From: Candidatus Moranbacteria bacterium RIFOXYA12_FULL_35_19
Lineage (GTDB): Bacteria > Patescibacteriota > Minisyncoccia > Moranbacterales > UBA2206
NCBI GenBank assembly: GCA_001784805.1
Contig: MFSE01000006.1
Location: forward strand, 1-52,706
Direction of reading: 5' to 3'
DNA: 52,706 bases
Both the position numbers and the translations under genes were made by a program. This document shows positions 7,241 through 52,706 of this stretch, piece by piece (within the stretch, counting starts at the first letter, position 1; each line of letters starts with the position of its first letter). The notes under the pieces were generated by a model. It worked only from the letters and a program-made list of their open reading frames with translations, had not been told where the DNA came from and searched no databases.

Positions 7241-7341
7241 AATTACGAAATACGAAATTAATACGAAATACGAAAATACGAAAAAACGAAAAATGGAGCC
7301 TTAGTGTTTCGTATTTCGTTAATTTCGTAGTTCGTAAATTT
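7241..7341. repeat. TACGAAA-heptad inverted-repeat element, copy 1
   Basis: (TACGAAA)n arm followed by (TTTCGTA)n arm ending TTCGTAGTTCGTAAA. Confidence 0.85.
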
Positions 7342-9569: not shown

Positions 9570-9652
9570 AATTACGAAATTAACGAAATACGAAACATTC
9601 AAATTCCCTTTTCGTACTTTCGTATTTCGTATTTATTTCGTAGTTCGTAAAA
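9570..9652. repeat. TACGAAA-heptad inverted-repeat element, copy 2
   Basis: Same arms and same TTCGTAGTTCGTAAA end as copy 1. Confidence 0.85.
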
Positions 9653-11074: not shown

Positions 11075-11077
11075 ATG

Positions 11078-11188
11078 ATTACGAAATACGAAATTAATAC
11101 TAAATACGAAAGTACGAAAATAAAATTAATACGGAAAATATAATTCAAAAAAATTTCGTATTTCGCTTATTTCGTAGTTCGTAAATTT
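11078..11188. repeat. TACGAAA-heptad inverted-repeat element, copy 3
   Basis: Same arms and same terminal 15-mer. Confidence 0.85.
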
Positions 11189-11193
11189 CAGAT

Positions 11194-11534
11194 ATATATC
11201 AAGGCAAATCTATAAGCCGGATTCTGTCGTGATCAATAATTTATCTAGCCCCGACGTTACCGTCGGGGTCAAGCGGCATTTCTTGTTCTTACTAGTGTAG
11301 AACAAGACACAGCCTTGCTCCCAGGTAAGGATTTAGCCGTTTCACCCCAATATTACTATTGGATTCGCCCCGCCTTTTCAAGCGGGGTGCTCAACCTTTC
11401 GGTTTCGCACGTCTCTGCTCGCACCTCTTGGATTGCTCCAGACGGGTATTACCCGCTACCATTTTCTATGTGGAGTCCGGACTTTCCTCCCCGACTTTTC
11501 GTCGAGGTAATTGACCAATTTGCCTTGATATATA
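11194..11534 (-). ncRNA. rnpB: RNase P RNA
   Basis: Minus strand has GAGGAAAGTCCGGACTCC and ACAGAATCCGGCTTAT; long P1 stem from the termini (tatatcaaggcaaat/atttgccttgatata); ends approximate. Confidence 0.95.
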
Positions 11535-11693: not shown

Positions 11694-14312
11694 TTATAAT
11701 TTTGCTATGTTTTTTAATAATTCTTTTTGACTTTTTATTTTTTCTCTGTATTCATTTAGTTTAATCTTATTATTTCCCACAACTTCCCTTGGTGCGCTGG
11801 CAAGGAAATTTTTGTTATTTAAGAGACCTTCGGTTTTTGAAATCAACTTTTCTAAGTTTATAATTTCTTTTTCCAAATTTTTCTTTTCTTTCTCGACATC
11901 AATTGATTCGATTATATCTAAATTTAAACTTGATACTTTGATTGATTTACTTTTTGTTTTTTCAGAAGAGATACTAACTCGCGCTAATTTTTCAATAATT
12001 TCCTTATTTGAAATTTTATTACTATATGCATTAATTATTTTCCCAGGATCAATATGATAGCTCGATCGGATATTTCTAATCTTGCCAATCATTTCTTGCA
12101 ATTCTCGAAATTCTTTCTCTGTTTTTTTATCAATTAATTTCTTGGAAGCTTCTGGCCACTTCTCAACCATTAGCAACTTCCTAAGGTTCAACCTTTGGCT
12201 AGCCAAAGGTTGAACCTTAGGAAGGATGGCATCACCATATATTTTTTCCGTCACAAACGGCATAAATGGATGCCACAGTTTCAAAATTTTATCGATCACA
12301 TATCCCAAAACTTTATCATTTTTTTCGAGTTTATGAATTTCAAGATACCATGAAGCTAATTCATCCCAAGTGAATTTAATAAGAATGTTTTCCGCCATGG
12401 CAATGTTTTTATTTTCCAACATTTTTGATGCCCCAAAAATTGCCTCATTAGCTCGCGAAACAATCCATTGATCAGCCAAGCTTTTAATATCTTTTTTAGA
12501 AATTTTTTCCACCAATTCAAATTTATCACTTGAGCTAAAACTATAACGATAGATATTCCAAAGTTTGGTCACAAAATTTCGATATTTTTCTATTTTTTCT
12601 TCATAGAGTCGCGTGTCTAATCCGGGAGTTGTGTCAGTAATAAGACTCATGCGAAGCGCATCCGCTCCATACTTCTCAATCATTGCTAATGGATCAACGC
12701 CATTGCCTTTAGATTTTGACATCTTTTGACCATCCTTGTCGCGAATCAGTCCCGTAAAAAATAAATTCTTAAATGGCACTTTACCGGTTCGATATAGCCC
12801 CATCATAATCATCTTAGAAGCCCAGAAAAAAAGCAGGTCGCGTCCCGTAACCATCATTTCAGTTGAATAAAAATCTTTATAGTCTTTGCCTTTTGGATAG
12901 CCCAAAGTTATGTATGGCCATTGAGCGGAAGAAAACCAAGTGTCAAAAGTATCCGAGTCTTGCATCAATTTTGTTCCCTTGCATTTTGGACAATTTTTTG
13001 GCTTTTCAATTGAAACAATATATTTTTCTTCTCCGCATTTTTCACAATACCAAACTGGAATTTGCGGTCCCCACCAAATTTGGCGCGAAATACACCAATC
13101 ATGCAAACCAGAAAACCAACCTGTCATTATTTTTCCAAAACTTTTTGGATAAATTTCAATCTTCCCTGTTTTGATCGCTTTTAAGGATTCTTTTTTTAGA
13201 GAATATTTTTTCGCATCCACATTCACAAACCATTGCTTGGAAATCAAAGGTTCAATCGTTTCCTTGCAACGCTCACAAACTGATTTATTGATTTCATTTT
13301 CTTCTATTTTTTCAATGAGGCCGAGCTTGGTCAAATCGCGTACAATATTTTCCCGTGCCTCTTCAACTTTTTGACCGACATATTTTCCGCCTAATTTTGT
13401 AATCTGCGCTTTTTCATTAATCACTTGAATTTCTTGGAGTTTATGATCTTTGCCAATTTGCCAGTCTAGCGGATCATGAGCTGGGGTAATTTTCACCGCG
13501 CCTGTACCAAATTCCATTTCCATTCTTCTATCGGAAATGATTGGAATTTCTCGATTTTGCAAAGGTAAAATAACAATTTTTCCCACTAATTTTTCAAAGC
13601 GTTTATCTTTTGGATTAACTGCCACGGCCGTGTCACCCAGCATTGTTTCTGGTCTTGTGGTCGCAACTGTAATAAACTGTTTAGAATCTTTCAGTGGATA
13701 TTTTATGTAATACAACCTTCCTGCTGTTTTTTTATGAAGCACTTCCACATCCGAAAGTGCAGTGGCACATCTAGGGCACCAGTTGATTATTCTTTCTCCG
13801 CGATAAATCATTCCGTCTTTTTCCATCTTGACAAAAGTCTCAAGCGCCCGAGAAAGAACGTCCGGATCAAGCGTGAATTTTTCTCGCGACCAATCCGCGC
13901 TGATACCGATTTTCTTTTCTTGCGCGCGCATATAATTTGACCTATCAATACAAAAGTCATAAATCTCCTTGTAGAATTTTTCTCGCCCTAAATCATATCG
14001 AGAAATCCCCCGTTCTGCTTTGATTTTTTTTTCATAAACTACTTGTGATTGAATTCCGGCGTGGTCTTTTCCTGGGAAAAGCAAAACTTTCTCCCCTTTC
14101 ATGCGGTGATAACGTCCAAAAATATCCATCACGGTGTAACCTGAAGCATGTCCAAGATGAAGCTCTCCATTAGCATTCGGTGGTGGCAAAATATTGCAAT
14201 ATTTTTTCTTGGATTTTATCTTGTCCGGACTAAAAAAACCACTCTCCTCCCAGAGCTTATATATCTCATCCTCATATTTATTCGCTTCGTATGTTTTTAA
14301 GATCTCTTTCAT
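11694..14312 (-). CDS. valS: Valyl-tRNA synthetase
   Basis: PPPNANGELHLGH, DWCISRQIWWG, KMSKSKGN, C-terminal coiled coil; start probably MKEILK. Confidence 0.97.
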   Translation of the reverse strand: MKEILKTYEANKYEDEIYKLWEESGFFSPDKIKSKKKYCNILPPPNANGELHLGHASGYTVMDIFGRYHRMKGEKVLLFPGKDHAGIQSQVVYEKKIKAERGISRYDLGREKFYKEIYDFCIDRSNYMRAQEKKIGISADWSREKFTLDPDVLSRALETFVKMEKDGMIYRGERIINWCPRCATALSDVEVLHKKTAGRLYYIKYPLKDSKQFITVATTRPETMLGDTAVAVNPKDKRFEKLVGKIVILPLQNREIPIISDRRMEMEFGTGAVKITPAHDPLDWQIGKDHKLQEIQVINEKAQITKLGGKYVGQKVEEARENIVRDLTKLGLIEKIEENEINKSVCERCKETIEPLISKQWFVNVDAKKYSLKKESLKAIKTGKIEIYPKSFGKIMTGWFSGLHDWCISRQIWWGPQIPVWYCEKCGEEKYIVSIEKPKNCPKCKGTKLMQDSDTFDTWFSSAQWPYITLGYPKGKDYKDFYSTEMMVTGRDLLFFWASKMIMMGLYRTGKVPFKNLFFTGLIRDKDGQKMSKSKGNGVDPLAMIEKYGADALRMSLITDTTPGLDTRLYEEKIEKYRNFVTKLWNIYRYSFSSSDKFELVEKISKKDIKSLADQWIVSRANEAIFGASKMLENKNIAMAENILIKFTWDELASWYLEIHKLEKNDKVLGYVIDKILKLWHPFMPFVTEKIYGDAILPKVQPLASQRLNLRKLLMVEKWPEASKKLIDKKTEKEFRELQEMIGKIRNIRSSYHIDPGKIINAYSNKISNKEIIEKLARVSISSEKTKSKSIKVSSLNLDIIESIDVEKEKKNLEKEIINLEKLISKTEGLLNNKNFLASAPREVVGNNKIKLNEYREKIKSQKELLKNIAKL
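12177..12224. repeat. 48-bp perfect palindrome in frame in valS
   Basis: CTTCCTAAGGTTCAACCTTTGGCT|AGCCAAAGGTTGAACCTTAGGAAG encodes LPKVQPLASQRLNLRK; identical at 31964-32011. Confidence 0.97.
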
Positions 14313-14950: not shown

Positions 14951-17488
14951 TTATTTTCTCACCTCTACTTTCAATTCTTTTTCCAAGTCTGTAATAACTT
15001 TTTCCATCACCTCATCTACTTCTCTACTTTCCAATGTTCGTTCACTGGCTCCAAATTCAATATGATAAGCAAAACTGGTTTGATTGTCTTTTTTGAAAAC
15101 ATCAAACATATCCACCTTCATCACTAAGTTTCCGCCAACTTTTTTTATGATATTTTGAATATCAATCGCTCTGGTTTCACCTTTGGCAAGCATTGAAATA
15201 TCGCGAATAACCGTTGGAAATTTTTGAAGAGGCAAAAATATTTTCTGTTTTTCTGCCACCCTCATAAGCTTTTCAGTATCAAACTCACAAACTGCCACTC
15301 TTTTTTCAATTTTATACTTCTTGAGTGTCAGCGGATTAATTTCTCCAATCATTCCAATCTTTTCATTATTCACAATAATTTCCGCATTGCGCACCGGATG
15401 AGTCAGATGATTTTTTGGAAGATTTTTTTCCTTATATAAAATATTATCCTCCCCTATTCCTAAATTTTCCAATAAACTTTGAACTGTGCCTTTTAGATTA
15501 TAAAATGTTTCCGCGCCCTTATCCTTTTCCAAAACTTGCGCCATCACGAGCATTCTTTTTTCTTCTGTTCCTGTCATTCCGAACTCGTTTCGGAATCCAG
15601 ATCCTGAAACAAGTTCAGGATGACAAGAGTAAACTTTGCCGATTTCAAAAATATTAAAACTTTCAAAAATATTTATATTTGTTTTGACATTTTTCAAAAT
15701 ATTTGGTACCAGGCTAACTCGAACATATCTTTGATCAGGATTCATTGGACTAGAAAGTTCAAAATGCTTTACCCCGTGGACTACCGCCTTTGGCGGTTGT
15801 TGCAAAGCAACATAGTCCATGGGGTGAATACCATCCAAGGCGCAATTCTTAGTGTCAATCTCGGAATAGAAAGAATAATTATACATTTCATCAAAGCCAA
15901 AACCAACTGCAATTTCTCCAAGTTTTCTTTCAAAAGACAAAACTTCATTTATTTTGGCAGGTATAACTGGCTCAACAAGTGGAAGAGGTTTAATTTTTTC
16001 ATATCCCCAAATCCGTCCAATCTCTTCAATCAAATCTTCTTGAGTTTTGAGATCAACTCTAAATGTAGGAATAGTACACACTACCTTATATGGTTGAATA
16101 GTAGTGTTGATTCCTAATAAATTTAATATTCTTGTTATTTCTTTTTTTGGAATTATTTCTCCCAAAAGAGAGTTTACATATTCCAAATCTAATTTTATTT
16201 TGCAAGGCTTGATTTTATTTGGATAAATATCAATTACTCCTTCGAACTCTGCGCCAGCAGTGTGTTCCAAAACTTCTATGATTCTGACAATGGCTTTTTC
16301 CGCTAAATTTGGATCAATCTCTTTTTCAAAACGATCAGATGATTCAGTTTTCACGCCCAGTCTTGTTCTTGAGCGTCTGATATTGACGGCATCAAAATTA
16401 GCGGCTTCCAAAATTATTGTCTTGGTATTTTCATTTATGCCTGAATCTTTTCCACCCATAATTCCAGCCAGTGCCAACGGAGTTTCGCCATTAGTAATAA
16501 GCAAATCAGAATTATTCAATTCTAAAATTGATTCGTCCAATAAAACTAATTTTTCTTTATCCTTTGCTCTTCTGATAATAATTTGTAGTTTATTTTTGCT
16601 TGAAATTTTTTCTGCGTCAAAAGCGTGCATTGGTTGCCCAAGTTCCAACATCACATAATTTGTCGCGTCAACTACATTATTAATCGGACGAATTCCTGAA
16701 GCCTCCAATCTTTGTTTCATCCAACTTGGCGAATCTTTAATTTCTACATTTTCCATTACTGCGCCAATATAGCGAGAGCATAGCTTCTTGTCCTCAATTC
16801 GCACTCGTAGAGACGCAAAATTTTGCGTCTTTACACAAGGCAACTTAAGTCCATCAAAATCATATTCAAATTTCCTATTTTCTAAAACTGAAATTTCCCT
16901 CGCCACACCAACATGACTGGTTGCATCGTGCGCTCGATCCGGCAAAACCTTTATTTCAAAAATTGTATCATCTTCCACGCCTAAATATTTTTTAGCTGGC
17001 TCGCCAATTTTAGCTTTAGAATCCAAAATAAAAATTCCGCTATGATCAGTTCCGAGCCCCAGCTCGTCCAATGCGCAAAGCATACCAAAAGATTTTTCCC
17101 CGCGAATTTCCGCCTCCTTTATCTCTATTCCGTTTGGAAGCTTTGTTCCTGCTGTCGCTACTGGAACTTTATCCCCAACTGCAATATTTTTTGCCCCGCA
17201 AACAATATCCAAAACCCCCTCTCCTTTATAAGGAGAAGGTTGCCCGCCTGCCGGCGAGGCAGGGGGTGAGGTGTGTTTCCCGATATCAATTTTTGTCAAT
17301 TGCAACTTATCCGCATTAGGATGTTTTTTGATTTCCAAAATCTTCCCCACCACCACTCCATCAAAATTCCATTTTTTTTCTTCCATCCCCTCAATTTCTA
17401 ACGAATGCATCGTCAAAAGCTCCCTCACTTTTTCCGGGGATAATTTTGTACCTGATAATTCCTTTAGCCAATTATATGAATATTTCAT
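14951..17488 (-). CDS. pheT: Phenylalanyl-tRNA synthetase beta subunit, with four in-frame palindromic inserts
   Basis: MKYSYNWLKE, HPNADKL, NNVVDATNYVMLELGQPMHAFD, EDLIEEIGRIWGY. Confidence 0.97.
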   Translation of the reverse strand: MKYSYNWLKELSGTKLSPEKVRELLTMHSLEIEGMEEKKWNFDGVVVGKILEIKKHPNADKLQLTKIDIGKHTSPPASPAGGQPSPYKGEGVLDIVCGAKNIAVGDKVPVATAGTKLPNGIEIKEAEIRGEKSFGMLCALDELGLGTDHSGIFILDSKAKIGEPAKKYLGVEDDTIFEIKVLPDRAHDATSHVGVAREISVLENRKFEYDFDGLKLPCVKTQNFASLRVRIEDKKLCSRYIGAVMENVEIKDSPSWMKQRLEASGIRPINNVVDATNYVMLELGQPMHAFDAEKISSKNKLQIIIRRAKDKEKLVLLDESILELNNSDLLITNGETPLALAGIMGGKDSGINENTKTIILEAANFDAVNIRRSRTRLGVKTESSDRFEKEIDPNLAEKAIVRIIEVLEHTAGAEFEGVIDIYPNKIKPCKIKLDLEYVNSLLGEIIPKKEITRILNLLGINTTIQPYKVVCTIPTFRVDLKTQEDLIEEIGRIWGYEKIKPLPLVEPVIPAKINEVLSFERKLGEIAVGFGFDEMYNYSFYSEIDTKNCALDGIHPMDYVALQQPPKAVVHGVKHFELSSPMNPDQRYVRVSLVPNILKNVKTNINIFESFNIFEIGKVYSCHPELVSGSGFRNEFGMTGTEEKRMLVMAQVLEKDKGAETFYNLKGTVQSLLENLGIGEDNILYKEKNLPKNHLTHPVRNAEIIVNNEKIGMIGEINPLTLKKYKIEKRVAVCEFDTEKLMRVAEKQKIFLPLQKFPTVIRDISMLAKGETRAIDIQNIIKKVGGNLVMKVDMFDVFKKDNQTSFAYHIEFGASERTLESREVDEVMEKVITDLEKELKVEVRK
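15572..15625. repeat. 54-bp TGTCAT...ATGACA double-hairpin element in frame in pheT
   Basis: Encodes CHPELVSGSGFRNEFGMT; the 27 bp at 15599-15625 are identical to 26676-26702. Confidence 0.92.
15768..15828. repeat. Branched palindrome in frame in pheT
   Basis: TTTACCCCGTGGACTA/TAGTCCATGGGGTGAA stem enclosing hairpins ACCGCCTTTGGCGGT and TGTTGCAAAGCAACA. Confidence 0.85.
16807..16834. repeat. GTAG-type REP-like palindrome in frame in pheT
   Basis: GTAGAGACGCAAAATTTTGCGTCTTTAC, 28 bp with one mismatch; encodes VKTQNFASL. Confidence 0.85.
17215..17272. repeat. CCCCTCTCCT..AGGAGA..GGGTGAGG element with nested 21-mer, in frame in pheT
   Basis: GC-rich insert encoding TSPPASPAGGQPSPYKGEG between KLQLTKIDIG and IVCGAKN. 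Confidence 0.85.
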
Positions 17489-17494
17489 GTCTTT

Positions 17495-17950
17495 CTTTAC
17501 TAATTACTAATTTTATTACTAATATACTAATCCTCTAAATTTACAATTCTTTTATATCTCACACATTCTTTTGTAAAATAAACGAGTATACCTAATCTTA
17601 AATTCATCGCTTTTAAATAAGAATATAACTGATCGATATCTCTTTTTGAAAAATAATTCTTACTTTTTAATTCAATAACTATTTTATCAAAAACTAAAAA
17701 ATCAAAAATATAATAACCGATTTCTTTTCCTCTATGTTTAACTTTTGCTTTTAATTGTTCTTTAAATTCTATATTATTTTCTGAAAAAATATTTGCAACA
17801 GCTTTCTGATAAAAACTTTCTTTATGTCCATATCCAATTTCATTAAAAATACTAAAAATCAAACCAATAATCTTATAACATTCATCCTTATAAATTAAAT
17901 CATTTCTTATACTCATTAGTATATTTGTATATGATTAGTAATTAGTAAAG
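17495..17950. mobile_element. Inverted-repeat-flanked GxxExxY module between pheS and pheT
   Basis: Perfect 17-bp IR CTTTACTAATTACTAAT (17495-17511) / ATTAGTAATTAGTAAAG (17934-17950), plus further TACTAAT units. Confidence 0.65.
17527..17916 (-). CDS. GxxExxY protein (PD-(D/E)xK nuclease fold)
   Basis: GHKESFY motif, then FDFLVFDKIVIELKS..QLYSYLK. Confidence 0.9.
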   Translation of the reverse strand: MSIRNDLIYKDECYKIIGLIFSIFNEIGYGHKESFYQKAVANIFSENNIEFKEQLKAKVKHRGKEIGYYIFDFLVFDKIVIELKSKNYFSKRDIDQLYSYLKAMNLRLGILVYFTKECVRYKRIVNLED

Positions 17951-17956
17951 ACCTAG

Positions 17957-19012
17957 CTAAAATTGTTTAACAAACCTTAAATCTCCCGAATGAAACAATC
18001 TCACATCATCAATCTTATATCTCGTCATTGCGAGTCGTTCCAGTCCAAATCCCCACGCAAATCCCTGATATTTATTTCTTGGGTACCCCGCGGAAACAAA
18101 AACATTTTGGTTGACCATCCCGGCACCACCAAGTTCTAGCCAACCCGCCCACTTACAAGCCTTGCAACCCTTTCCGCCACAAACCGTGCAAGAAATATCA
18201 AATTCAAAACTTGGTTCTGTAAATGGAAAATAACTTGGACGCAGTCGCACATCCACATCTTGTTTGAAAAAAGCGGAAAAAAATTCTTTGGCAGTAAATT
18301 TCAAATTTCCTACATTCACATCCTCTCCTACAATCAAAGCTTCAAACTGATAGAAAGTATGCTCGTGAGTTGTGTCCGTAGCTTCACGACGAAAACATTT
18401 CCCTGGGACAATAATTCGAAGTGGTGGTTTATTTTTCTCCATATACCTAGCCTGCACCGCTGAAGTTTGACTTCGCATAGAAAAATTGTCCGCGTCTTTC
18501 CGCGTTCCGTCCGCGTTTGTCTGCGAGCGAAGCCAAAAAGTATCTTGCATATCGCGCGCCGGATGATCTTTGGGAATATTCAAGGCATCAAAATTATACC
18601 ATTCATTTTCAATTTCCGGACCATCAGCAATTTCATAGCCCATTGAAGTAAAAACATCTTCAATGTCACGACGCACCAGCGAAATTGGATTGAAGTGTCC
18701 TACACTTTTTTTCTTTCCGGGAATTGTCACATCAATTTTTTCTTTTTCCGCGTCAAAACTCCCACTTTCAATTTCAGTCTTTTTGTTTTTTATTATTTCA
18801 AAAATTTCATTTTTCGTGTTATTGGCTAATTCTCCAATTTGCCTTCTTTCTTCCGGTGTTAAATTTTTTAGATTTTTGAGAATAGAAATAAATTCGCTCT
18901 TTCTACCAACATATCTTTTTTCCAATTCAAAAAGAGCCTCCTCACTTGGCTTAATTTTCTCAATTTCCGCCAAAAACTGCTTCTTCAAATTTTCAATTTT
19001 TTCCTTTAACAT
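17957..19012 (-). CDS. pheS: Phenylalanyl-tRNA synthetase alpha subunit
   Basis: NFDALNIPKDHPARDMQDTF, RLRPSYFPFTEPS, FAWGFGLERL; start probably MLKEKI. Confidence 0.97.
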   Translation of the reverse strand: MLKEKIENLKKQFLAEIEKIKPSEEALFELEKRYVGRKSEFISILKNLKNLTPEERRQIGELANNTKNEIFEIIKNKKTEIESGSFDAEKEKIDVTIPGKKKSVGHFNPISLVRRDIEDVFTSMGYEIADGPEIENEWYNFDALNIPKDHPARDMQDTFWLRSQTNADGTRKDADNFSMRSQTSAVQARYMEKNKPPLRIIVPGKCFRREATDTTHEHTFYQFEALIVGEDVNVGNLKFTAKEFFSAFFKQDVDVRLRPSYFPFTEPSFEFDISCTVCGGKGCKACKWAGWLELGGAGMVNQNVFVSAGYPRNKYQGFAWGFGLERLAMTRYKIDDVRLFHSGDLRFVKQF

Positions 19013-19018
19013 AACCGT

Positions 19019-19158
19019 TGTCATTCCCGCGTAGGCGGGAATCTAGTCTCGAATTTATCTTAAAATTCAAGAATATTTTTATATACTATTTTTTCATTTA
19101 GCCTCTACACTGGATTCCCGTTTTCCTACCTCGCCGGCAGGCGGGCACGGGAATGACA
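19019..19158. repeat. TGTCATTCCC..GGGAAT (dRS3-like) miniature element upstream of pheS
   Basis: ATTCCC-N8-GGGAAT left arm; right arm GGATTCCCGTTTT[21-mer]CACGGGAATGACA; first 29 bp identical to 28690-28718. Confidence 0.88.
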
Positions 19159-19261
19159 ATTATATCGACATTTATATTCTAAGCTAAAAAAAGGCTTTTT
19201 GCAAACTAATAAAAAACTAGAATTAGGCGGGAGTTGGGCATCTCCCGCTAAAATATTAGGT

Positions 19262-19432
19262 TTATTTATAAAGTTCAACAACGGGAATTTCGTGTTTACA
19301 ATTTCCACAAGGAATAAACCACCAAACAGAATGATACTGTTTATGTTTACATTGAGGACAAATAATATAGCCAGCTCCTCCGACTCCAAATGTAAACTGT
19401 TTTTCTTCTTCTTTACTATCCTTATTGCTCAT
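19262..19432 (-). CDS. Small zinc-ribbon protein (56 aa, not in ORF track)
   Basis: GGAGG SD then MSNKDSKEEEKQFTFGVGGAGYIICPQCKHKQYHSVWWFIPCGNCKHEIPVVELYK; hairpin GCGGGAG..CTCCCGC follows. Confidence 0.65.
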   Translation of the reverse strand: MSNKDSKEEEKQFTFGVGGAGYIICPQCKHKQYHSVWWFIPCGNCKHEIPVVELYK

Positions 19433-19485
19433 AGTATCCCTCCTTTTTTGATTTTTTCGCCCAATTCTAATTTTTTATTCAATTT

Positions 19486-19725: not shown

Positions 19726-19734
19726 AGTAATTCC

Positions 19735-19835
19735 CTACAAAATTACAAAATTTTACAAAAATACAAATATACAAAATGTTGTTTTTTCATTTTTTGTACT
19801 TTTGTATTTTTGTATTTATTTTGTACTTTTGTAGT
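19735..19835. repeat. TACAAAA-heptad inverted-repeat element overlapping the secF stop
   Basis: (TACAAAA)n arm then (TTTTGTA)n arm. Confidence 0.75.
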
Positions 19836-20724
19836 TTATTTGTAATTTATAACTCGTAACTAATAACGCCGAGGCGATAAAAATTGAAGAATATGTTCCA
19901 AAGAAAACTCCAATCAAAAGCGCCAAAGAAAAATCTCGAATTGTTGCTCCGCCAAAAATAAATACCGCCAGAAGAGTAATCAGAACAGTAAGTGAAGTAT
20001 TTACTGATCGAACCAAAGTTTCATTCAAACTTCTGTTTACTATATCCGGAAAAGTTTCCTTATTGGAACTTCTAAGTAAATTTTCCCGCGTTCGATCATA
20101 TACTACAATTGTATCATGCACTGAAAAACCTAAAATAGTAAGCAAAGCCGCTATAAAAGGAATCCCGACTTCTATCCCATAAAAATGTCCCAGCACAGAA
20201 AAAGCTCCCGTTGTTATAAGAATATCATGAACAAGGGCAATCACTGCCCCAATGCCATATTTCCAAGAAGCCACCGGTCGAGAAACCTTTCGAAAGGCCC
20301 AAGCAATATAAGCTAAAATTCCCGCAACTGCCCAAAATATCGCCCATAGAGATTTTGATTTCAATTCATTGGAAACTGAAGCATTAGCATAATCTACCCT
20401 AAGCTCCTTAGAATTTGGATATTTTTCGCTTATTTTTTTGAAAACATTTTGATTTATTGTATCATCCTCTGACGCATAGCGGATAAGGGCGGAGTTATTT
20501 TGCGTTGACTGAATCGTCAAGCTTTTCAGATTTAGATCCTTTAATGTTTCTTCAATTTCTTGATTAGCTGGAATACTATTTTCAAAACTAACTTCCATCA
20601 ATGTTCCGCCAGTAAAATCAATTCCGAATTTTAGTCCCCACACAAAAAGACTAACAACACTCAATATAGTAAGTGTTATTGAAAAAATATAAGCGTATTT
20701 AGTTTTGGAAATAATATTAATCAT
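19816..20724 (-). CDS. secF: Protein translocase subunit SecF
   Basis: GLKFGIDFTGG, LTILGFSVHDTIVVYDRTRE, GTYSSIFIA; start moved to 20724 because the longer start lies in a repeat. Confidence 0.96.
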   Translation of the reverse strand: MINIISKTKYAYIFSITLTILSVVSLFVWGLKFGIDFTGGTLMEVSFENSIPANQEIEETLKDLNLKSLTIQSTQNNSALIRYASEDDTINQNVFKKISEKYPNSKELRVDYANASVSNELKSKSLWAIFWAVAGILAYIAWAFRKVSRPVASWKYGIGAVIALVHDILITTGAFSVLGHFYGIEVGIPFIAALLTILGFSVHDTIVVYDRTRENLLRSSNKETFPDIVNRSLNETLVRSVNTSLTVLITLLAVFIFGGATIRDFSLALLIGVFFGTYSSIFIASALLVTSYKLQINYKSTK

Positions 20725-29190: not shown

Positions 29191-29220
29191 ATAATTTAAT
29201 TTAAATTAATTAGCTTATAT

Positions 29221-29334
29221 TCCTTACAAATTACGAACTTTTACGAATGTACCAATGTGAATTAAAAATAATTTTTATTTTTTATTTAATTATTTGCAAT
29301 TCGTACATTCGTACCAATTCGTAATTCGTAAGGA
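29221..29334. repeat. TACGAA-heptad inverted-repeat element between murB and hpf
   Basis: TCCTTACAAATTACGAA ... TTCGTAATTCGTAAGGA. Confidence 0.8.
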
Positions 29335-29337
29335 TTA

Positions 29338-30291
29338 CTAGAAGCCCACATATTGCACTTCTTCTTGAAGTTGCACGCCCAACTCATCGCGCACTTTCAT
29401 TTTGATAACACTAGAAAGCATCACAATATCCTGCGCTTTAGCATTGCCTACATTTACTACAAAATTAGCATGCTTTTCGCTCACTGCAGCACCCCCAATT
29501 TTTTTCCCGCGTAGCCCAACCTCGTCTATCAGCCAGCCAGCCGGAATTTTTGAATCTATTGCCTTCTGGCCAGTGTCTTTTTCAAAACGATTAATCAATT
29601 CCTGATTTTCCACCTTTGGATTCTTGAAAAAACTTCCAGAACTTGGTTTTTTAGGATTTGGATGAACTGTATCAGAGCGTTTCTTGATAATTTCTTTTAT
29701 TTTATTATTTATTTCTTCCTGATCGCCCTTTTCTAATTTCAAAACAGCCGAAATTATAATCAGATCTTTATTTTCTTTGAAAATGCTATTGCGATATGCA
29801 AACTTACATTCACTTTTCCTAAGGTTCAACCTTTGGCTAACCAAAGGTTGAACCTTTATGACTTCCACGCTTTCCGCATTATCCGCCATGCAACCCAACG
29901 GTATCCCAGCATTTCCCCGAATCGCTCCACCAACTGTTCCAGGAATTCCCGATGCCCATTCAAGTCCGGAAAGTGAATTTTGCATTGCTAAATTAACAAC
30001 TGAGCTCAAAGAGGCACCGGCAGAAACTTCAATTTTATTTTCTTGTATCTTGTATCTTGCGTCTTGTATCTTGATTACTAATCCATCAAATCCATCGTCG
30101 CTTATAAGAATATTACTCCCTCCGCCCAGCACAAAAATTTCCAAATTATTTTCTTTGGCAAATTGCAAAGCCTCAAGAAGCGCCTCTTCGTCGCTCACTT
30201 CTACAAAGTATTTCGCCGGTCCACCGATTTTGAAAGTAGTCAACGGCGCAAGAGAAATATTTTTTTGGATTTTTAAAATTGGCATAAACAA
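29338..30291 (-). CDS. murB: UDP-N-acetylenolpyruvoylglucosamine reductase
   Basis: TTFKIGGPA, LGGGSN, GIPGTVGGAIRGNAG, SGSFFKNP, KHANF. Confidence 0.96.
   Translation of the reverse strand: MFMPILKIQKNISLAPLTTFKIGGPAKYFVEVSDEEALLEALQFAKENNLEIFVLGGGSNILISDDGFDGLVIKIQDARYKIQENKIEVSAGASLSSVVNLAMQNSLSGLEWASGIPGTVGGAIRGNAGIPLGCMADNAESVEVIKVQPLVSQRLNLRKSECKFAYRNSIFKENKDLIIISAVLKLEKGDQEEINNKIKEIIKKRSDTVHPNPKKPSSGSFFKNPKVENQELINRFEKDTGQKAIDSKIPAGWLIDEVGLRGKKIGGAAVSEKHANFVVNVGNAKAQDIVMLSSVIKMKVRDELGVQLQEEVQYVGF
29816..29856. repeat. Truncated copy of the valS/RAYT palindrome in frame in murB
   Basis: TTCCTAAGGTTCAACCTTTGGCTAACCAAAGGTTGAACCTT, one mismatch; encodes KVQPLVSQRLNLRK. Confidence 0.95.
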
Positions 30292-31525: not shown

Positions 31526-32197
31526 TTATTCTAAAATATATTCTTCTAATTCTTTCTTATCCTTAAAATAATCAGCATTATTTTTTATATACTTTTCGTA
31601 TTCATCAAAATTATTATCAAACTGCCCCAAAATAATTTCTTTGTTACATAACTTTCCCTCTCTCTTCCCAGTATAATCCAAAAAGCTGGAATATGGCCAA
31701 TCCTTTTCCGAAAACCCATGAATTTCGTGATTAACATTCACATAGGCCGAAAGCAAAAGAAGATATTCGTTGGAGTCGATGTGGATGGATTTAAATCTTC
31801 CCTGAAAAAGAGCTCCTGAACGTTTGGTTTTTTTATTAAAATACATAGTATAACTAGTACCGACTTTTTGCATAAATTTAACTATGCCATTATTTTGCTC
31901 TTGTTTTACTATAAAATGATAGTGATTAGGGTTAAGACAATAAGCAATAATAGAAACGATTGGCTTCCTAAGGTTCAACCTTTGGCTAGCCAAAGGTTGA
32001 ACCTTAGGAAGCTCTGCTATTCCATTTTTATGTAAATCTCTCCATATCAACATCAATCCATCTTTTTCATCATTCAACAAACTCATCCCCAAAATAAACC
32101 TCTCATAATCTTTCTTATCCAAAAACACCTCCCGCTTATCTACTCCACGGTTATATATGTGGTAATATTCACCATTGGCAAATTCAGTTTTTCGCAT
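31526..32197 (-). CDS. REP-associated tyrosine transposase (RAYT, Y1 HUH family)
   Basis: YYHIYNRG, AYCLNPNHYHF, YFNKK..RSGALFQGRF, Y.N.N, WPYSS. Confidence 0.9.
   Translation of the reverse strand: MRKTEFANGEYYHIYNRGVDKREVFLDKKDYERFILGMSLLNDEKDGLMLIWRDLHKNGIAELPKVQPLASQRLNLRKPIVSIIAYCLNPNHYHFIVKQEQNNGIVKFMQKVGTSYTMYFNKKTKRSGALFQGRFKSIHIDSNEYLLLLSAYVNVNHEIHGFSEKDWPYSSFLDYTGKREGKLCNKEIILGQFDNNFDEYEKYIKNNADYFKDKKELEEYILE
31963..32012. repeat. 50-bp perfect palindrome inside the RAYT ORF
   Basis: Contains the 48-mer found in valS. Confidence 0.97.
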
Positions 32198-32204
32198 TTA
32201 TTTT

Positions 32205-33587
32205 TTATTTTTCATTTAATTTCTCGGCGACTTCCCAGCCGTTACCGGCACCGATGGCGATGACAACATCTTCACTTCCGATTTTATCTCGCAAAAATTC
32301 CACTGCTTCATCAATCGTTTTTATATATTGCGCCTTGTCTCGATCGTATTTATTGATCAAATCAACTAAATCTTTGGAGCTTATTTTTCCAAAATTTTCT
32401 CGAGCCGAGCCATAAATATCCAAAATGATCACCTGATTAGCATCAGAAAATGATTGTGAAAATTCTTGCAAAAGCGCTTCTGTTCTAGAATAGGAATGTG
32501 GATGAAAAACCGCCCAAATATTTTTCTGCGGATAAATTTCTCGTGCACCCTTAAGTGTTGCCTTAATTTCCTCTGGATGATGTCCATAATCATCAATCAA
32601 AATTGCACCATTTCTTTCCCCGATATATTCAAATCTCCTTTTGGTTCCACTAAAACTAGCTAGTCCTTCTTTTATTTTCTCTAAATCTAAATTCAATTTA
32701 TGGCAAGTTGCTATAACCGCGCAAGCATTCAAAACATTATGTTTTCCTGTTAATTGAATTTCAAAAACTCCTAAACTTTTATCGCTATAACTAACTTCAA
32801 AAAATTGTTTTAGATTTTGTAATTTGTAATTTGTAATTTTATAATTATTCTCCTCATTGAATCCATAAGTCAAAACTTGACACTTTGCTTCTTTCGAAAC
32901 TTCCAGAGTATCCACACTGTCTCCCCAAACTACCAAAAATCCGGTTTTTGGAATACGCGCTACGAAATCTTTAAAAGCTTTTTTATAATCGGCAAAATTT
33001 GGAAAAGTGTCAGGATGATCAAAATCCAAACTGGTTAATACAATCGCTTTTGGATTATATAATTTTAATTTATTTTGAAATTCATCCGTTTCTGCCACAA
33101 AAAACTCCCCTTTCCCGCTAAGTGCATTACCCTCCCAATTTATAACTCGGCTTCCAATCACTGCGCTCGGATCAACTCCAATTTCTTTTAATGTATGTGC
33201 TAACATTGCCGAAGTTGTCGTCTTGCCATGCGTTCCGCAAACTGCAATCCCATATTTCTCATTAAAAAGTTCGGCTAAAATTTCCGGATAGCTAATCATC
33301 TCCAAATTTCTTTTTTTCGCTTCTTGAAATTCAATATTATTATTTTCATTATACGCCGTGGAATAAATTACCAGATCCGTATCTGCTGGAATATTTTCTG
33401 GAGAAAATTTTTCAAAATATTGAATGCTTAATTTTTGCAAAATCTCATCAGTGAAAAATTTTTCATTCGTATCCGAACCTGTTATTTCAATTCCCATGGA
33501 ATGCAAAATTTCCACCACCGCAATCACGCCGGAACCCTTAATACCAATTATATAAGCTTTTTTAAGATTATTTAAATTAATTGACAT
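32205..33587 (-). CDS. murC: UDP-N-acetylmuramate-L-alanine ligase
   Basis: IIGIKGSG, GTHGKTTT, GTKRRFE, DDYGHHPEEI. Confidence 0.95.
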   Translation of the reverse strand: MSINLNNLKKAYIIGIKGSGVIAVVEILHSMGIEITGSDTNEKFFTDEILQKLSIQYFEKFSPENIPADTDLVIYSTAYNENNNIEFQEAKKRNLEMISYPEILAELFNEKYGIAVCGTHGKTTTSAMLAHTLKEIGVDPSAVIGSRVINWEGNALSGKGEFFVAETDEFQNKLKLYNPKAIVLTSLDFDHPDTFPNFADYKKAFKDFVARIPKTGFLVVWGDSVDTLEVSKEAKCQVLTYGFNEENNYKITNYKLQNLKQFFEVSYSDKSLGVFEIQLTGKHNVLNACAVIATCHKLNLDLEKIKEGLASFSGTKRRFEYIGERNGAILIDDYGHHPEEIKATLKGAREIYPQKNIWAVFHPHSYSRTEALLQEFSQSFSDANQVIILDIYGSARENFGKISSKDLVDLINKYDRDKAQYIKTIDEAVEFLRDKIGSEDVVIAIGAGNGWEVAEKLNEK

Positions 33588-33592
33588 ATAAA

Positions 33593-33692
33593 TAATTTTT
33601 AATTTGAAGTTTTTAATTTTTAATCAATTTTAAATTTATAAATTTTCAAAATAAAAATTCAATAAAAAATTTTAAATTAAAAATTAAAAATT
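33593..33692. repeat. AT-rich heptad inverted repeat between murG and murC
   Basis: (TTTTAAT)n arm then (ATTAAAA)n arm filling the intergenic gap. Confidence 0.55.
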
Positions 33693-40199: not shown

Positions 40200-40913
40200 C
40201 TAAAAAGAAGCGCCTCCTCCAAAGTAAATATCTTTTATTTTTTTATTTTTCAAAATATCTTTGCCTCCTTCCACCGCAATTGTACCATTTTCTAGAATGT
40301 AAGTCCTGTCAGCTATTTCAACCGCCTGTTTGGCATTTTGTTCAACCATCAAAACAGAGATTCCTTCATTTTTGATTTCCACTATCTTCTCAAAAACTTC
40401 TTTCATTGTCTTTGGATCTAGCCCAAGAGATGGCTCGTCTAAAAGAAGAATTTGGGGATTTTGAATCAAAGCACGGGCAATTGCCAAAAGTTGTTGTTGA
40501 CCGCCGGATAAATTTCCCGCCAGAGCATTTTGCTTTTTTTCAAGAATTGTAAATTTTTTGAAAATATTTTCTATGCTTCTTTTGACAATATCTTGATCGT
40601 TGATTGTAAACGCGCCCATTTCTAAATTTTCCAAAACCGTCATGTTGGAAAAAACTTGCCGGCCTTGCGGAACAAAACTAATTCCCAAAGAAATCAATTC
40701 GTGTGTTTTCAAGTCAGTGATATCAATATCTTTGAAAATAATTTTCCCACTATAAACATCCGCCAAACTAAAAATACTTTTCAGCGCCGTTGATTTGCCG
40801 GCGCCATTAGGACCGATTAGAACAACAATCTCCTTCGGATTAATTTCTAAATAAACCCCGTGTAAAATTTTCGTTTTATTATAACCAGAATTAAGATTGA
40901 CTATTTTTAACAT
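40200..40913 (-). CDS. livF: Branched-chain amino acid ABC ATPase
   Basis: GPNGAGKST, VPQGRQVF, LSGGQQQ, LDEPSLGL, VEQNA. Confidence 0.92.
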   Translation of the reverse strand: MLKIVNLNSGYNKTKILHGVYLEINPKEIVVLIGPNGAGKSTALKSIFSLADVYSGKIIFKDIDITDLKTHELISLGISFVPQGRQVFSNMTVLENLEMGAFTINDQDIVKRSIENIFKKFTILEKKQNALAGNLSGGQQQLLAIARALIQNPQILLLDEPSLGLDPKTMKEVFEKIVEIKNEGISVLMVEQNAKQAVEIADRTYILENGTIAVEGGKDILKNKKIKDIYFGGGASF

Positions 40914-42231: not shown

Positions 42232-42642
42232 TTATATTTTTTCAATATTTTCCAAAAATTCATCTATATCATCAAGGCCATTTCGCAAGATATTTTCCAA
42301 TACCGCGTAATCAACTTTCTCATAATCATGTGCCATAATATTTCGAAATCCTGTCATCGCAACCATTTTTCCAGTAATGCCATCAGAAATTATCCCATTC
42401 TCATTAAGAATATGAAAAAATTCACTCATTGTAGTTGGCTTGCGAAAATTTTTATAGGAAACAATCGCGTCTGCTAAATCAATCGTGGCTTGCACAGCTA
42501 AATATAAATATCTTTCCAGCGCTCCTTTTTTATCCACATCCGCCAAAATTTCCGGAAATGGAATATTTTTATACCGCTCTAAAATCTTAAGGTATTTGCG
42601 AACGGCACTTATTTTATTTTCAATCACGGTTATCGTTGTCAT
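42232..42642 (-). CDS. hepT: HEPN (DUF86) RNase toxin
   Basis: RNIMAHDY = RX4HXY motif; follows the MNT gene. Confidence 0.88.
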   Translation of the reverse strand: MTTITVIENKISAVRKYLKILERYKNIPFPEILADVDKKGALERYLYLAVQATIDLADAIVSYKNFRKPTTMSEFFHILNENGIISDGITGKMVAMTGFRNIMAHDYEKVDYAVLENILRNGLDDIDEFLENIEKI

Positions 42643-42645
42643 AAA

Positions 42646-43038
42646 CTAGGCTTTAGTTAAATTATATTTTCGAAGCATCGTAAGAAAATCAAAATATTCC
42701 TGCAAAATATGTGGCTCAACCAAAATTTTATATGGCTCTTTCTTGCAAATAAGTTGGCCGTCTCTTATAATTTCATATTTTATTTCTGGCGACTCGATGG
42801 TATTTAAAATCACTAAATCAACTTTTTCTGTCTTAAGCACACGGGAAAGTTCGTCCATTAAGCGAAATTTTATATCAAACATTTTTTGTTTGTCTTTTTC
42901 GTCTAAATAAACAGCAAAATCATAATCACTCATCGGTCCCGCTTCTCCCCGCGCCCGAGAACCGAAAAAATACGCCAGTTTAACTGCCTGAAAACGCTCA
43001 AAAATCTCTCTTATTTTCTCTTCCAATTCTTTTTTCAT
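42646..43038 (-). CDS. mntA: Minimal nucleotidyltransferase antitoxin
   Basis: FGSRARGEAGPMSDYD = GSX10DXD; KVDLVILN. Confidence 0.88.
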   Translation of the reverse strand: MKKELEEKIREIFERFQAVKLAYFFGSRARGEAGPMSDYDFAVYLDEKDKQKMFDIKFRLMDELSRVLKTEKVDLVILNTIESPEIKYEIIRDGQLICKKEPYKILVEPHILQEYFDFLTMLRKYNLTKA

Positions 43039-50513: not shown

Positions 50514-51349
50514 CATGTTTCTATTCTCCGCGTTTCCACGGGCATGGACTATATCTTCATCCCGATTAAATCGGGAGCTAACGTGTAGTCTCTACGGGGT
50601 CAAAGGCAGTTTGTAAATCATATCGGGATGCATATAAGGAAAAACTATTTCCTTAAATTTTTTAATATTACCAACTGGAATGTAAAGTCTATTACCTTTA
50701 CTGTCCCAATTAAGATTCGCTTGAAAATTAAAATTATTTTTCAAGCAATCTATGAGCAACAAATTTTCTTCCCTTGAAAAACTATGTGTACTTATAGTAA
50801 CGGTTTTCTTAGAAGTACTAAGACTGCCGTCATCCATAAACCACACAGCCAAACTTATTGGATGTACGAAAATTTTTTTAATATTTAGTGGAATTATTTT
50901 TCTCTTAACCGGATAGAATGTCTTTCGAAATTCTGTCATTTGCGGGTGAGAAATTGTCCTGAATCTAAATGACTGATGTTGCGCTAAATATTTCGGTTGG
51001 GTCAAAACCCAGCCTTTAAATATTTCAGCAGCCCAGAAAACATAGTCTTTATGTTCAGCTTTCTGTTCCACCTGCAAACGAAAACTTTTTCCTGTTAAGG
51101 TCGAAATTAGAGAACCATCGCCTAGAATTTTTCCAATCAAAAATCCTTTTTGAATTTCTGTGAGTTCCAAACTATCTCTAATATTCCTAACAATTTTCGA
51201 ATTCCAATTTTTTATACCTCGACTTCCCACGGTATTACCATAAATTAATTATGCTTTAATTATAACATACTTAACTTTTAGGCTTCACCGTTATAGTTAG
51301 TTTTTTCATGAGGATTACTCCTCAAGGTCGCAACGATTAGGGTAATCAA
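50514..51349 (-). mobile_element. Group I intron in 16S rRNA after the U1498 equivalent
   Basis: Exon ends in U and intron ends in G; guide GUUGCGAC pairs with GUCGU (U.G) and AAC; R element GTAGAGACTAC and S element AAGATATAGTCC. Confidence 0.93.
50592..51230 (-). CDS. Two-motif LAGLIDADG homing endonuclease
   Basis: LIGKILGDGSL and LAVWFMDDGSL; inside the group I intron. Confidence 0.92.
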   Translation of the reverse strand: MGSRGIKNWNSKIVRNIRDSLELTEIQKGFLIGKILGDGSLISTLTGKSFRLQVEQKAEHKDYVFWAAEIFKGWVLTQPKYLAQHQSFRFRTISHPQMTEFRKTFYPVKRKIIPLNIKKIFVHPISLAVWFMDDGSLSTSKKTVTISTHSFSREENLLLIDCLKNNFNFQANLNWDSKGNRLYIPVGNIKKFKEIVFPYMHPDMIYKLPLTP

Positions 51350-51438: not shown

Positions 51439-52344
51439 ATTATCTATCTAAAACTAGACATTGATGTTCCCATCGTGCCTGCGGATTTCCCGCACACGAC
51501 GAGCTCTAATGCATTTTTTGCTTAAGGGCATAAATTTTTCTAAGCCCAGATTCTTTAAAATGATAATTTTTCATAACCAGTTTAATAATTCTGCAAAAAA
51601 TTTCAAAGTCACCTTTCTTCGAGCGTAATCTCAAAGAATTCCTTTTAAAAAATGGAATAATAATTTTTTCCAAATCATTTCTATTGGCTACTTCAAAACG
51701 ATAACAATCTTGATGATTTTTTCGCTTATCTGGTTGAAAGTAAACATTGCCACAACCAAAATATTTTTTAAGCTTATACAGAATTTTTTTATCTTTCGCT
51801 ATAAGTTTCAAATAAAATCTTGGTTCGACTTTTGTTCGTCTTTTAACTTCCTTCTTAGAATCAGGATTTTTTACATAAACTGTAAAGCTTCCTTCTCCAT
51901 CGACTAAGCCAACAATATAATTTGGATTTATTTTTTCCATATGCTATTGAGTGAATCCTTCTCCCGTCCCGCTTAGCGGGACAGAATACTATGATTCAGC
52001 TGACTTCTTACGCTGCGTAAGTTTCGTTATTACAATTTTATTATAACATAAAATTGAAACAGCGCAAGATCTCCTAGGGTTATTTAATATTCTTTTCTTT
52101 ACATTCCAGTAAGTCTTTTGCATGCCTGCCTCGTCGGCAGACGGGCATCTTCCCTATGCTCACCACCTGTTCAAAGGTCGATGCGACTTTCCCGATATAT
52201 CGGGATAAACTGGACTGTAATTTGCCTTCAGATCCTTCACCGTCATTCTCGCGAATGACGACTACCTGTTAGCTACGCTCCGATTGGGTTTCGGAGGGAG
52301 AGATTTAAACTCTCTAGATTATTAAACTGCCTAGCGCTTTTATT
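51439..52344 (-). mobile_element. Group II-like intron in 16S rRNA between the C1399 and C1400 equivalents
   Basis: Splits GTACTCAC|CGCCCGTC; ends in AT; domain-V-like hairpin CGTCGTGTGCGGGAAATCCGCAGGCACGATG at 51471-51501; no U|..G group I ends. Confidence 0.8.
51506..51940 (-). CDS. Single-motif LAGLIDADG homing endonuclease
   Basis: YIVGLVDGEGSF..YFGCG..IIPFF..KKGDFEIF; stops just before domain V. Confidence 0.93.
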   Translation of the reverse strand: MEKINPNYIVGLVDGEGSFTVYVKNPDSKKEVKRRTKVEPRFYLKLIAKDKKILYKLKKYFGCGNVYFQPDKRKNHQDCYRFEVANRNDLEKIIIPFFKRNSLRLRSKKGDFEIFCRIIKLVMKNYHFKESGLRKIYALKQKMH

Positions 52345-52571
52345 GTGAGTACAAGATCCGAGAACGTATTCACCGTGATATGGCTGATTCACGATTACTA
52401 GTGATTCCGGCTTCATGAGGTCGAGTTGCAGACCTCAATCCGAACTGAGACCATCTTTATGGGATTAGCTCCGCCTTACGGCTTAGCAACCCTTTGTAAT
52501 GGCCATTGTAGCACGTGTGTAGCCCAGGGCGTCAAAGGGCCACGCTGATCTGACGTCATCCCCGCCTTCCT

Positions 52572-52692
52572 CCCAGAACTTTGTTCGCTAGCGAACAAAG
52601 TAAATTCCAAATTCCAAGATACAAATCCCAAATTTTGGTTATTGTGCCTTGATTATTGGTCATTACTTTGCGCTATCGCGCAAAGTTCTGGG
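52572..52692 (-). other. About 110-nt structured insertion extending 16S helix 40
   Basis: CCCAGAACTTTG/CAAAGTTCTGGG stem replaces the short hairpin between GAGACTGCC and GGAGGAAGG. Confidence 0.85.
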
Positions 52693-52706
52693 CAGTCTCG
52701 TGTGAC

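Follow-up and report, generated by a model that had tools for sequence, protein, structure and literature searches.

The closest described relatives in design of the element reported here, a cassette that carries a gene of the GxxExxY (PDDEXK_3) family between inverted arms and lies between pheS and pheT of Candidatus Moranbacteria bacterium RIFOXYA12_FULL_35_19, are the intervening sequences (IVS) of rRNA genes, the REPIN/RAYT systems, and the transposons with their miniature inverted-repeat transposable elements (MITEs). The whole stretch analysed, called the window from here on, comprises 52,706 nucleotides (assembly GCA_001784805.1, contig MFSE01000006.1, positions 1 to 52,706). In the systems formed by repetitive extragenic palindromes (REP/REPIN) and RAYT, a single gene is bracketed by inverted short repeats, and the same repeat forms gene-less intergenic hairpin doublets; RAYT is a HUH/Y1 (IS200-like) enzyme. 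Among the homing endonucleases, I-Ssp6803I is a small PD-(D/E)xK enzyme. According to passages in two papers, 23S rRNA intervening sequences are excised by RNase III (PMC4990558; PMC11270868). As for the family itself, the relevant entry of a 2012 survey of PD-(D/E)xK proteins lists the function of PDDEXK_3/GxxExxY as 'Unknown' (PMC3424549), and a passage of another paper mentions the domain as a mislabelled cas4 neighbour (PMC8934634).

The cassette holds a clear member of the GxxExxY/PDDEXK_3 family and resembles rRNA IVS, REPIN/RAYT and transposon/MITE systems, but it fails one defining feature of each. Like the rRNA IVS, which are thought to be moved horizontally, it is a sporadically distributed stem-loop insert of a few hundred bases with pairing inverted repeats, with or without a small open reading frame (ORF). 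However, it sits between protein-coding genes and not in a 23S or 16S rRNA helix, the sole rRNA match of the window being at 52293-52706; its protein is a PD-(D/E)xK nuclease, whereas the IVS protein (S23p / 23S_rRNA_IVP, PF05635) is a four-helix bundle; and its arms are ordered arrays of four heptads. With REPIN/RAYT it has in common a repeat-flanked gene and gene-less hairpins of the same repeat. In contrast, its gene belongs to PF13366 and encodes no HUH enzyme (PF01797, the Y1 transposase profile, gave no match in the resident protein), its gene-less copies can arise from the full unit by internal deletion, and Y1_Tnp genes with palindromes of their own coexist in these genomes as a separate system. 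Terminal inverted repeats common to full and gene-less copies, internal-deletion derivatives and, in relatives but not within the window, a frequent match of gene-less copies to full copies of their own genome recall transposons and MITEs, but the cassette has neither a visible target-site duplication nor a DDE or serine/tyrosine transposase, is only about 460 bp long and is confined to stop-start gaps of operons. Finally, it shares with homing endonucleases a small PD-(D/E)xK core and a conservation at one site far above that of the host flanks, but it lies outside introns and inteins and possesses inverted arms of its own. No published description of the cassette was found in a full-text literature search, subscription journals and supplements being outside its scope.

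Our overall reading, to which we assign a probability of roughly 0.6, is that of a selfish GxxExxY cassette with heptad-array ends, copied through its nuclease and decaying to gene-less hairpins. Its parts differ in strength. That the cassette is mobile and that gene-less hairpins derive from such cassettes is highly probable, and that the nuclease drives the mobility is a tentative proposal from sequence data, with somewhat less than an even chance of being right.

The cassette between pheS and pheT

The resident ORF is matched by PF13366 (PDDEXK_3; E 1.1e-27, 97.1 bits against a cut-off of 22) and by TIGR04256 (GxxExxY; E 8.6e-28, 97 bits against a cut-off of 35), and near-identical copies of its protein occur in records named Candidatus Moranbacteria or Moraniibacteriota. 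The flanking ORFs were identified through their orthologues in two related loci (L001 and L002), which are PheS and PheT by Pfam and share 83-90% protein identity with them. The locus is composed as follows.

17494..17951, whole cassette: inverted heptad arms and GxxExxY gene, delimited by homology to L003-L008, L014-L018 and others and by boundary parsing
17915..17951, minus strand: upstream arm (gene sense), TCTT + TACTAAT TACTAAT cata TACAAAT a TACTAAT; its last heptad overlaps the ATG at 17914-17916
17527..17916, minus strand: GxxExxY / PDDEXK_3 gene, 129 aa, with the motif G30-x-x-E33-x-x-Y36 and the core D72, E82-x-K84
17494..17531, minus strand: downstream arm, reading on the plus strand TCTT TACTAAT TACTAAT tttat TACTAAT a TACTAAT; its innermost heptad contains the TAG at 17527-17529
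17957..19024, minus strand: pheS, upstream host gene
14951..17488, minus strand: pheT, downstream host gene

The cassette is 458 bp long and leaves a gap of 5 nt to the pheS stop and of 5 nt to the pheT start. Its outer arms (17494-17516 and 17929-17951) are 23 nt long and 91% complementary, with a perfect core of 18 nt (TCTTTACTAATTACTAAT); as a gapped inverted repeat they extend over 38 nt and comprise four TACNAAT heptads on each side. Each arm consists of TCTT and a pair of heptads, a spacer of 4-5 nt and a second pair interrupted by one A; the start codon (ATG) and the stop codon (TAG) of the gene are each overlapped by the innermost heptad on their side. When the filled unit is folded as a 476-nt transcript, both arms are predicted to pair, in the minimum free energy as well as in the centroid structure. 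The first-pass annotation of this DNA, made from the sequence alone, had proposed that the gene splits pheS from pheT, which was borne out by the Pfam assignment of the orthologues and by the coordinates, and that a perfect 17-bp inverted repeat of TACTAAT units brackets it, a length that proved slightly conservative.

Within both host genes, short G+C-rich in-frame stretches (pheT 17200-17299 and pheS 18500-18549) are 16-44% identical to L001/L002, neighbouring windows being mostly 80-94% identical. They are read as variable repeat-like inserts within the coding sequence.

Heptad arms in the GxxExxY family

A profile scan of genome contigs, using an alignment of 27 relatives, gave 79 loci, mostly of Patescibacteria and a few labelled Bacteroidota, some of the labels being doubtful. 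The upstream flank of each gene was aligned to the reverse complement of its downstream flank, with a score of 16 as the threshold. An inverted repeat at or above this score was present around 64 of 78 relatives and around 16 of 289 random other genes of the same loci (Fisher p 4e-42), so that the doubt raised in the first-pass annotation, that GxxExxY genes might generally lack such repeats, did not hold. At least two TACNAA units were found in each aligned arm in 66 of the 78 loci, and a strict parse gave the complete pair-spacer-pair layout (2+2 heptads) on both sides in 52 of 80. Among 941 control genes, 40 scored 16 or more; these were mostly GxxExxY paralogues, 23S_rRNA_IVP genes, IS200-like transposase genes with their own palindromes, and housekeeping genes lying between two elements.

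These counts bear on the alternative that low-complexity AT-rich repeats surround an ordinary small gene by chance. Short repeats of this kind are common in a genome of such composition (the 52.7-kb window has a G+C content of 34%). Nevertheless, the pattern TACNAANTACNAA has 15 matches in the window against 0.13 expected, a number reached in 0 of 100 shuffles, and 12 of the 15 are inside six elements, the resident cassette and five hairpins described below. Together with the control test and with the recurrence of the layout, this already refutes a chance origin, which can be dismissed for all practical purposes.

The repeat-bounded cassette design is family-wide. In more distant GxxExxY paralogues of these loci the arms are composed of ACGCTGA, ACGCAGA, CGCAAAG, CCGCTAAT, ACACGGAT or ATGCAAAT/CTACAAAT units. 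A plasmid collection contained three distant GxxExxY matches (27-33% identity), two of them with unit hairpins. The flanks of a distant GxxExxY gene of Treponema (T. saccharophilum, a cultured host) are inverted CACACGGAT-type units; on a plasmid of Gemmatirosa, a G+C-rich cultured bacterium, a hairpin with three ACGCGGAT-type units per arm lies directly 3' of the distant gene (L082 1911-1983); and no unit hairpin was found beside the gene of the Persicobacter plasmid match. The unit thus differs by protein clade, which would agree with its recognition by the protein.

Insertion sites and ancestry

When copies from other gene contexts are aligned to the window, nucleotide homology starts and stops sharply at 17492-17952. 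As many as 51 junction types could be named among the 79 loci, the commonest being rpsG|fusA (15), pheS|pheT (3) and pilB|pilC (3); others, such as tig|clpP, gatC|gatA, secD|secF, polA|holA, yebC|ruvC and nusG|rplK, are pairs or singletons. One locus (L007) has two near-identical cassettes, one on either side of pilC. The parsed units measure 448-520 bp and fit tightly between their neighbours, with a distance of at most 10 nt from the preceding stop to the arm in 39 of 44 cases and from the arm to the following start in 40 of 45. Crudely called neighbour ORFs are co-directional in 135 of 147 cases; of the 12 that run the other way, at least 2 are artefacts called antisense to rpsG. When the locus flanks were searched for virgin junctions, rpsG|fusA was found to hold other small genes in L038 and L056.

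In the protein tree the pheS|pheT clade of the window is nested, with starred support, among copies at glyA, porG, tig|clpP and pilC junctions, and other starred pairs likewise mix sites. The gene is therefore not fixed at pheS-pheT, a point on which the proposal of the first-pass annotation also depended: close relatives occupy glyA|NTP-transferase, porG, tig|clpP and pilC junctions.

The pheS position is common to the window, L001, L002 and L009, and the arms there are 97-100% identical between genomes. Compared with L001, the gene is 97.9% and the arms are 100% identical, the 50-nt windows of the flanks being mostly 80-94% identical. Among identical residues, the fraction encoded by an identical codon is 121/126 (0.96) in the gene against 210/297 (0.71) in pheS and 486/662 (0.73) in pheT (Fisher p 1e-10); the comparison with L002 gives 107/123 (0.87), 197/299 (0.66) and 415/629 (0.66), respectively (Fisher p 8e-7). 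Because of this higher identical-codon fraction, the common ancestry of the cassette between these genomes is younger than that of the flanking genes, as would be expected under recombination or homing spread at one site. The gene differs from that of L002 by 16 synonymous and 6 non-synonymous codons; therefore, the protein is under purifying selection. Only partial profile matches were obtained in L004, L015, L036 and L046, which look decayed or frameshifted, assembly errors being possible.

Two loci are irregular. In L024 (1-760) the GxxExxY gene is immediately preceded by an arm of reverse type and followed by an entire gene-less hairpin and an extra arm, which suggests nested or tandem insertions. 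An identical cassette with identical flanks is present in contigs labelled Jorgensenbacteria and Woesearchaeota (L019/L020), which points to mis-binning or a very recent transfer.

Gene-less hairpins

Clusters of at least three TACNAA/TTNGTA units occur in the window only at 7244, 9611, 11080, 17498/17916, 19736/19793 and 29225/29300, with a weak one at 32816. ORF-less heptad elements had been announced in the first-pass annotation at 7241, 9570, 11078, 19735 and 29221, and all five are present; apart from them, the heptad clusters are confined to the resident unit and the weak one. They are the following.

7241..7340: gene-less TACGAAA hairpin between two GT1 glycosyltransferase genes, z -5.7; sister subfamily (L013/L023/L011 type)
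9572..9652: gene-less TACGAAA hairpin between a GT1 gene and a sugar-transferase gene, z -3.6; sister subfamily
11077..11186: gene-less TACGAAA hairpin between the sugar-transferase start and the RNase P RNA 3' end, z -3.1; sister subfamily
19731..19845: gene-less TACAAAA hairpin between a 79-aa ORF and secF, z -7.3
29220..29338: gene-less hairpin, 2+2 layout with a 44-nt loop, between the HPF gene and murB, z -9.6; arms nearest to the L007/L056/L057 type

The z-scores for folding as RNA hairpins thus range from -3.1 to -9.6. All six elements of the window fill gaps between co-directional minus-strand genes. At the gathering thresholds of Rfam no family was found on any hairpin of the whole window, the only matches being RNase P RNA (11197-11526) and the 3' end of the 16S rRNA. 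The last codons and the stop codon of secF come from the right arm (19816-19845) of the TACAAAA hairpin.

In the window and the loci together there are 19 heptad hairpins with a loop of at most 100 nt, 16 of which parse as 2+2 in both arms. One of them, L003 4741-4881, is an internal deletion of the full L003 copy: it retains the upstream arm, the first ~45 nt of the ORF, the last ~22 nt of the ORF and the downstream arm, and lacks ~320 nt in between. For thirteen gene-less copies whose own locus also holds a parsed full copy, the rank of that full copy among 52 was determined. The own-genome copy was first in 4 of 13 cases (p 8.5e-5), second in 1 and fourth or fifth in 3, and hence within the first five in 8 of 13; where it was fourth or fifth, the better ranks were held by near-identical sister elements. 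The remaining ranks were 11, 15, 19, 34 and 43. Those of 34 and 43 belong to two gene-less L050 elements that match by eye the arms of the second L050 copy, and those of 15 and 19 to the window elements 19736 and 29225.

The first-pass annotation had taken the resident gene and the hairpins of the window as an autonomous/non-autonomous pair. The relation between full and empty forms is real, as the L003 deletion and the own-genome ranks indicate, but the hairpins of the window are not derived from its resident copy. Five of the six arms of 7241, 9572 and 11077 score 18.5-32.5 against the L013/L023/L011 clade, the left arm of 11077 being nearest to other loci, whereas all six score 6.5-11 against the window's own arms; the arms of 29221 are nearest to those of the L007/L056/L057 type. 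The TACGAAA hairpins belong to a sister subfamily, and their cognate gene is absent from the window.

Conservation of the heptads

Positions 1-3 and 5-6 of the heptad are nearly invariant (382-390 of 392) and position 4 is free (G 236, T 90, A 57, C 9). No pairing covariation was seen at position 4 when partner heptads of the two arms were compared with non-partners within the locus, the base being the same in 134 of 196 and in 416 of 588 comparisons, respectively, and the central spacers are alike between arms in just 3 of 49 loci. What is conserved is therefore an ordered array of sequence motifs and not perfect pairing, the arms being still able to pair at 6 of 7 heptad positions.

This has to be set against the possibility that the hairpins serve the host as intercistronic RNA elements for processing, stability or termination, with GxxExxY as a factor that binds or cleaves them in trans and is autoregulated through its position within one of them. 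Such a role would account for the strong predicted RNA folds, for the exact placement between stop and start, for the occupation of the same junction in the window, L001 and L002 despite different units, and for the tRNA-splicing endonucleases among the weaker fold matches of the protein. It fits poorly, however, with a motif that is kept while its pairing is not, with a sporadic spread over 51 junction types, with the existence of decayed copies and of the plain deletion derivative in L003, and with a cassette much better conserved than the essential genes that flank it. We thus consider a host-serving function very improbable.

The protein and the proposed mechanism

In the window protein the family motif reads G30-H-K-E33-S-F-Y36, and in two alignments, of 27 and of 83 sequences, E33, D72, E82 and K84 never vary. 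The family is large (4438 clusters at 50% identity, E<=0.001). A sequence search of solved structures gave nothing significant (best E 0.066). The AlphaFold model, a confident one (predicted local distance difference test, pLDDT, 91.1; predicted template modelling score, pTM, 0.83), has as its closest solved fold Cas4 SSO0001 (E 1e-5, TM-score 0.55-0.58), a likeness to Cas4/RecB-type enzymes. Further matches are lambda-exonuclease-like enzymes, MGME1, nuclease domains of AdnAB and archaeal Hjc and, more weakly, tRNA-splicing endonucleases; the best matches in the PDB are all PD-(D/E)xK nucleases. Unlike Cas4, the protein has no CRISPR context and two cysteines only, and therefore no Cas4-type four-Cys iron-sulfur cluster. 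According to the model, it would be a generic PD-(D/E)xK nuclease core with no extra domain, a fold that does not specify the substrate. The prediction of a homodimer from two copies scored 0.04 against a mark of 0.42, which speaks neither for nor against binding.

Under the preferred reading, these would be widespread compact selfish cassettes of ~450-520 bp. Two inverted arms, each with a pair of TACNAAT heptads, a spacer of 3-5 nt and a second pair, close off a gene for a GxxExxY PD-(D/E)xK protein, and the unit occupies, in the orientation of its neighbours, the short gap that separates the stop of an operon gene from the start of the following one. The protein would read the heptads of its own clade, and its E33/D72/E82/K84 site would cut DNA at or near the arms or heptad hairpins, leading to copying into new or homologous junctions. 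This copying would leave no target duplication, and the protein may act in trans on gene-less copies. Full cassettes duplicate within a genome and, through internal deletion, decay to ORF-less hairpins that keep their ends. Pairing of the arms in the transcript would form a long stem and seal the insert off, as in a 23S rRNA intervening sequence, and it is probably because of this stem that operons tolerate it.

Parallel cassettes and turnover at fixed junctions

The design is not restricted to GxxExxY. In six cases 23S_rRNA_IVP (PF05635) genes occupy operon junctions within inverted arms of other tandem short units.

L001 12973-13332: 23S_rRNA_IVP cassette
L006 3797-4189, 10751-11134 and 12371-12721: three 23S_rRNA_IVP cassettes
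L042 3478-3837: 23S_rRNA_IVP cassette
L060 8282-8644: 23S_rRNA_IVP cassette

Since their protein is a four-helix bundle with no nuclease fold, the architecture needs no nuclease. The flanks of the gene in L001 are TTAGCAT-type units, and units of different families replace one another at orthologous junctions. The 9570 junction holds a TACGAAA hairpin in the window and TTAGCAT units in both L001 and L002. At 19735 the units are TACAAAA (window), TTAGCAT (L001) and GTAGTAA/GTAGAAA (L002). At 11078 the window has a TACGAAA hairpin and L001 a gene-less 2+2 element of the TCTTTAC type. The same stop-start gaps are therefore contested by several cassette families.

A further gene-less hairpin of the window, made of AATTTTTAATTT-type units, lies between murC and murG (33594-33692), and a similar unit flanks the 23S_rRNA_IVP gene of L042 (3478-3837). 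The window has a Y1_Tnp gene at 31526-32197, and such genes occur in L039, L067 and L074 as well; the Y1 transposases observed come with GC-rich palindromes that are their own and of another kind. A 48-bp perfect palindrome is found inside the valS ORF (12177-12224), and a longer, 81%-complementary copy of it (31946-32029) inside the IS200-like Y1_Tnp ORF of the window; they look like a REP/RAYT-type system separate from the heptad cassettes.

These parallels raise the alternative of a passive cassette comparable to an intervening sequence. Mobility or recombinogenicity would then reside in the heptad hairpin itself, with host recombination, replication slippage or some other enzyme (e.g., an IS200-like Y1) as the agent of movement, and GxxExxY would be cargo with some other role such as addiction, defence or RNA processing. 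The 23S_rRNA_IVP genes in the same kind of cassette, the Y1_Tnp genes available in these genomes, the exchange of hairpins of different unit families and the lack of a visible target duplication all speak in its favour. Against it, the heptad unit varies with the GxxExxY clade, which would be unexplained if the cargo were unrelated to the arms; the catalytic residues are invariant in a gene under purifying selection; and the palindromes of the Y1 transposases are not those of the cassette. A passive cassette with GxxExxY as cargo is, on balance, unlikely.

The reading of a selfish cassette copied by its own nuclease has also to face several observations that weigh against it, chief among them the six 23S_rRNA_IVP cassettes. 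The copies at rpsG|fusA, 15 of 79, could partly reflect old vertical inheritance; in the protein tree they fall in at least 7 places, the deep forks being poorly resolved (22 of 78 open). Neither a target-site duplication nor a conserved target motif is visible outside the arms in 52 parsed copies, and no empty pheS-pheT allele was found among the 79 loci, the four pheS junctions seen (window, L001, L002 and L009) being all filled. No clear repeat is present in 14 of 78 loci, and the gene-less hairpins of the window do not match its resident full copy. Finally, nearly all loci are metagenome bins, and labels and some frameshifts may be artefacts.

Other features of the window

The RNase P RNA (bacterial class A, 11197-11526, minus strand, 158 bits) accounts for a 24-nt inverted repeat at 11186-11209/11518-11541. 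Relative to L001/L002 there is a 279-bp insertion at 19206-19484, which has a 56-aa Cys-rich ORF (19262-19432) and sits within a 49-nt, 71%-complementary inverted repeat. Two ORFs for LAGLIDADG endonucleases (50592-51230 and 51506-51940) adjoin the 3' part of the 16S rRNA gene (52293-52706) and are probably rRNA-gene insertions, of a kind described for bacteria of the candidate phyla radiation (CPR) in a passage of one paper (PMC11270868). A HepT-like RNase and a nucleotidyltransferase (MNT) form a toxin-antitoxin-type module at 42232-43038, within a cluster for branched-chain amino-acid transport.

A Shine-Dalgarno-like motif within ~15 nt of the start was found in 1 of 43 genes (40200-40913), and in 3 others it lies 21-28 nt upstream, so the genome seems to start translation without it. 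The idea that the genes next to hairpins are special in lacking this motif was consequently rejected.

Meaning for the GxxExxY family and for Patescibacteria

With this cassette, GxxExxY/PDDEXK_3, a large family of 'function unknown', gains a concrete and testable role and a defined DNA or RNA partner, the heptad arrays. The origin of the conspicuous intergenic hairpins of Patescibacteria is explained as well, and is linked to the movement of rRNA intervening sequences, which has long lacked an explanation. Should the protein indeed read the heptads of its clade, it would be a candidate compact nuclease that combines sequence specificity with modular recognition. More broadly, GxxExxY and 23S_rRNA_IVP cassettes may form one undescribed class of 'operon-junction intervening sequences', whose small protein would read a clade-specific heptad code four times per end, a proposal that we regard as doubtful. 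If it were true, an orphan PD-(D/E)xK family would turn out to be natural nucleases with modular recognition of short repeats, which would drive duplication-free copying into stop-start gaps and leave heptad hairpins in the intergenic DNA of reduced genomes.

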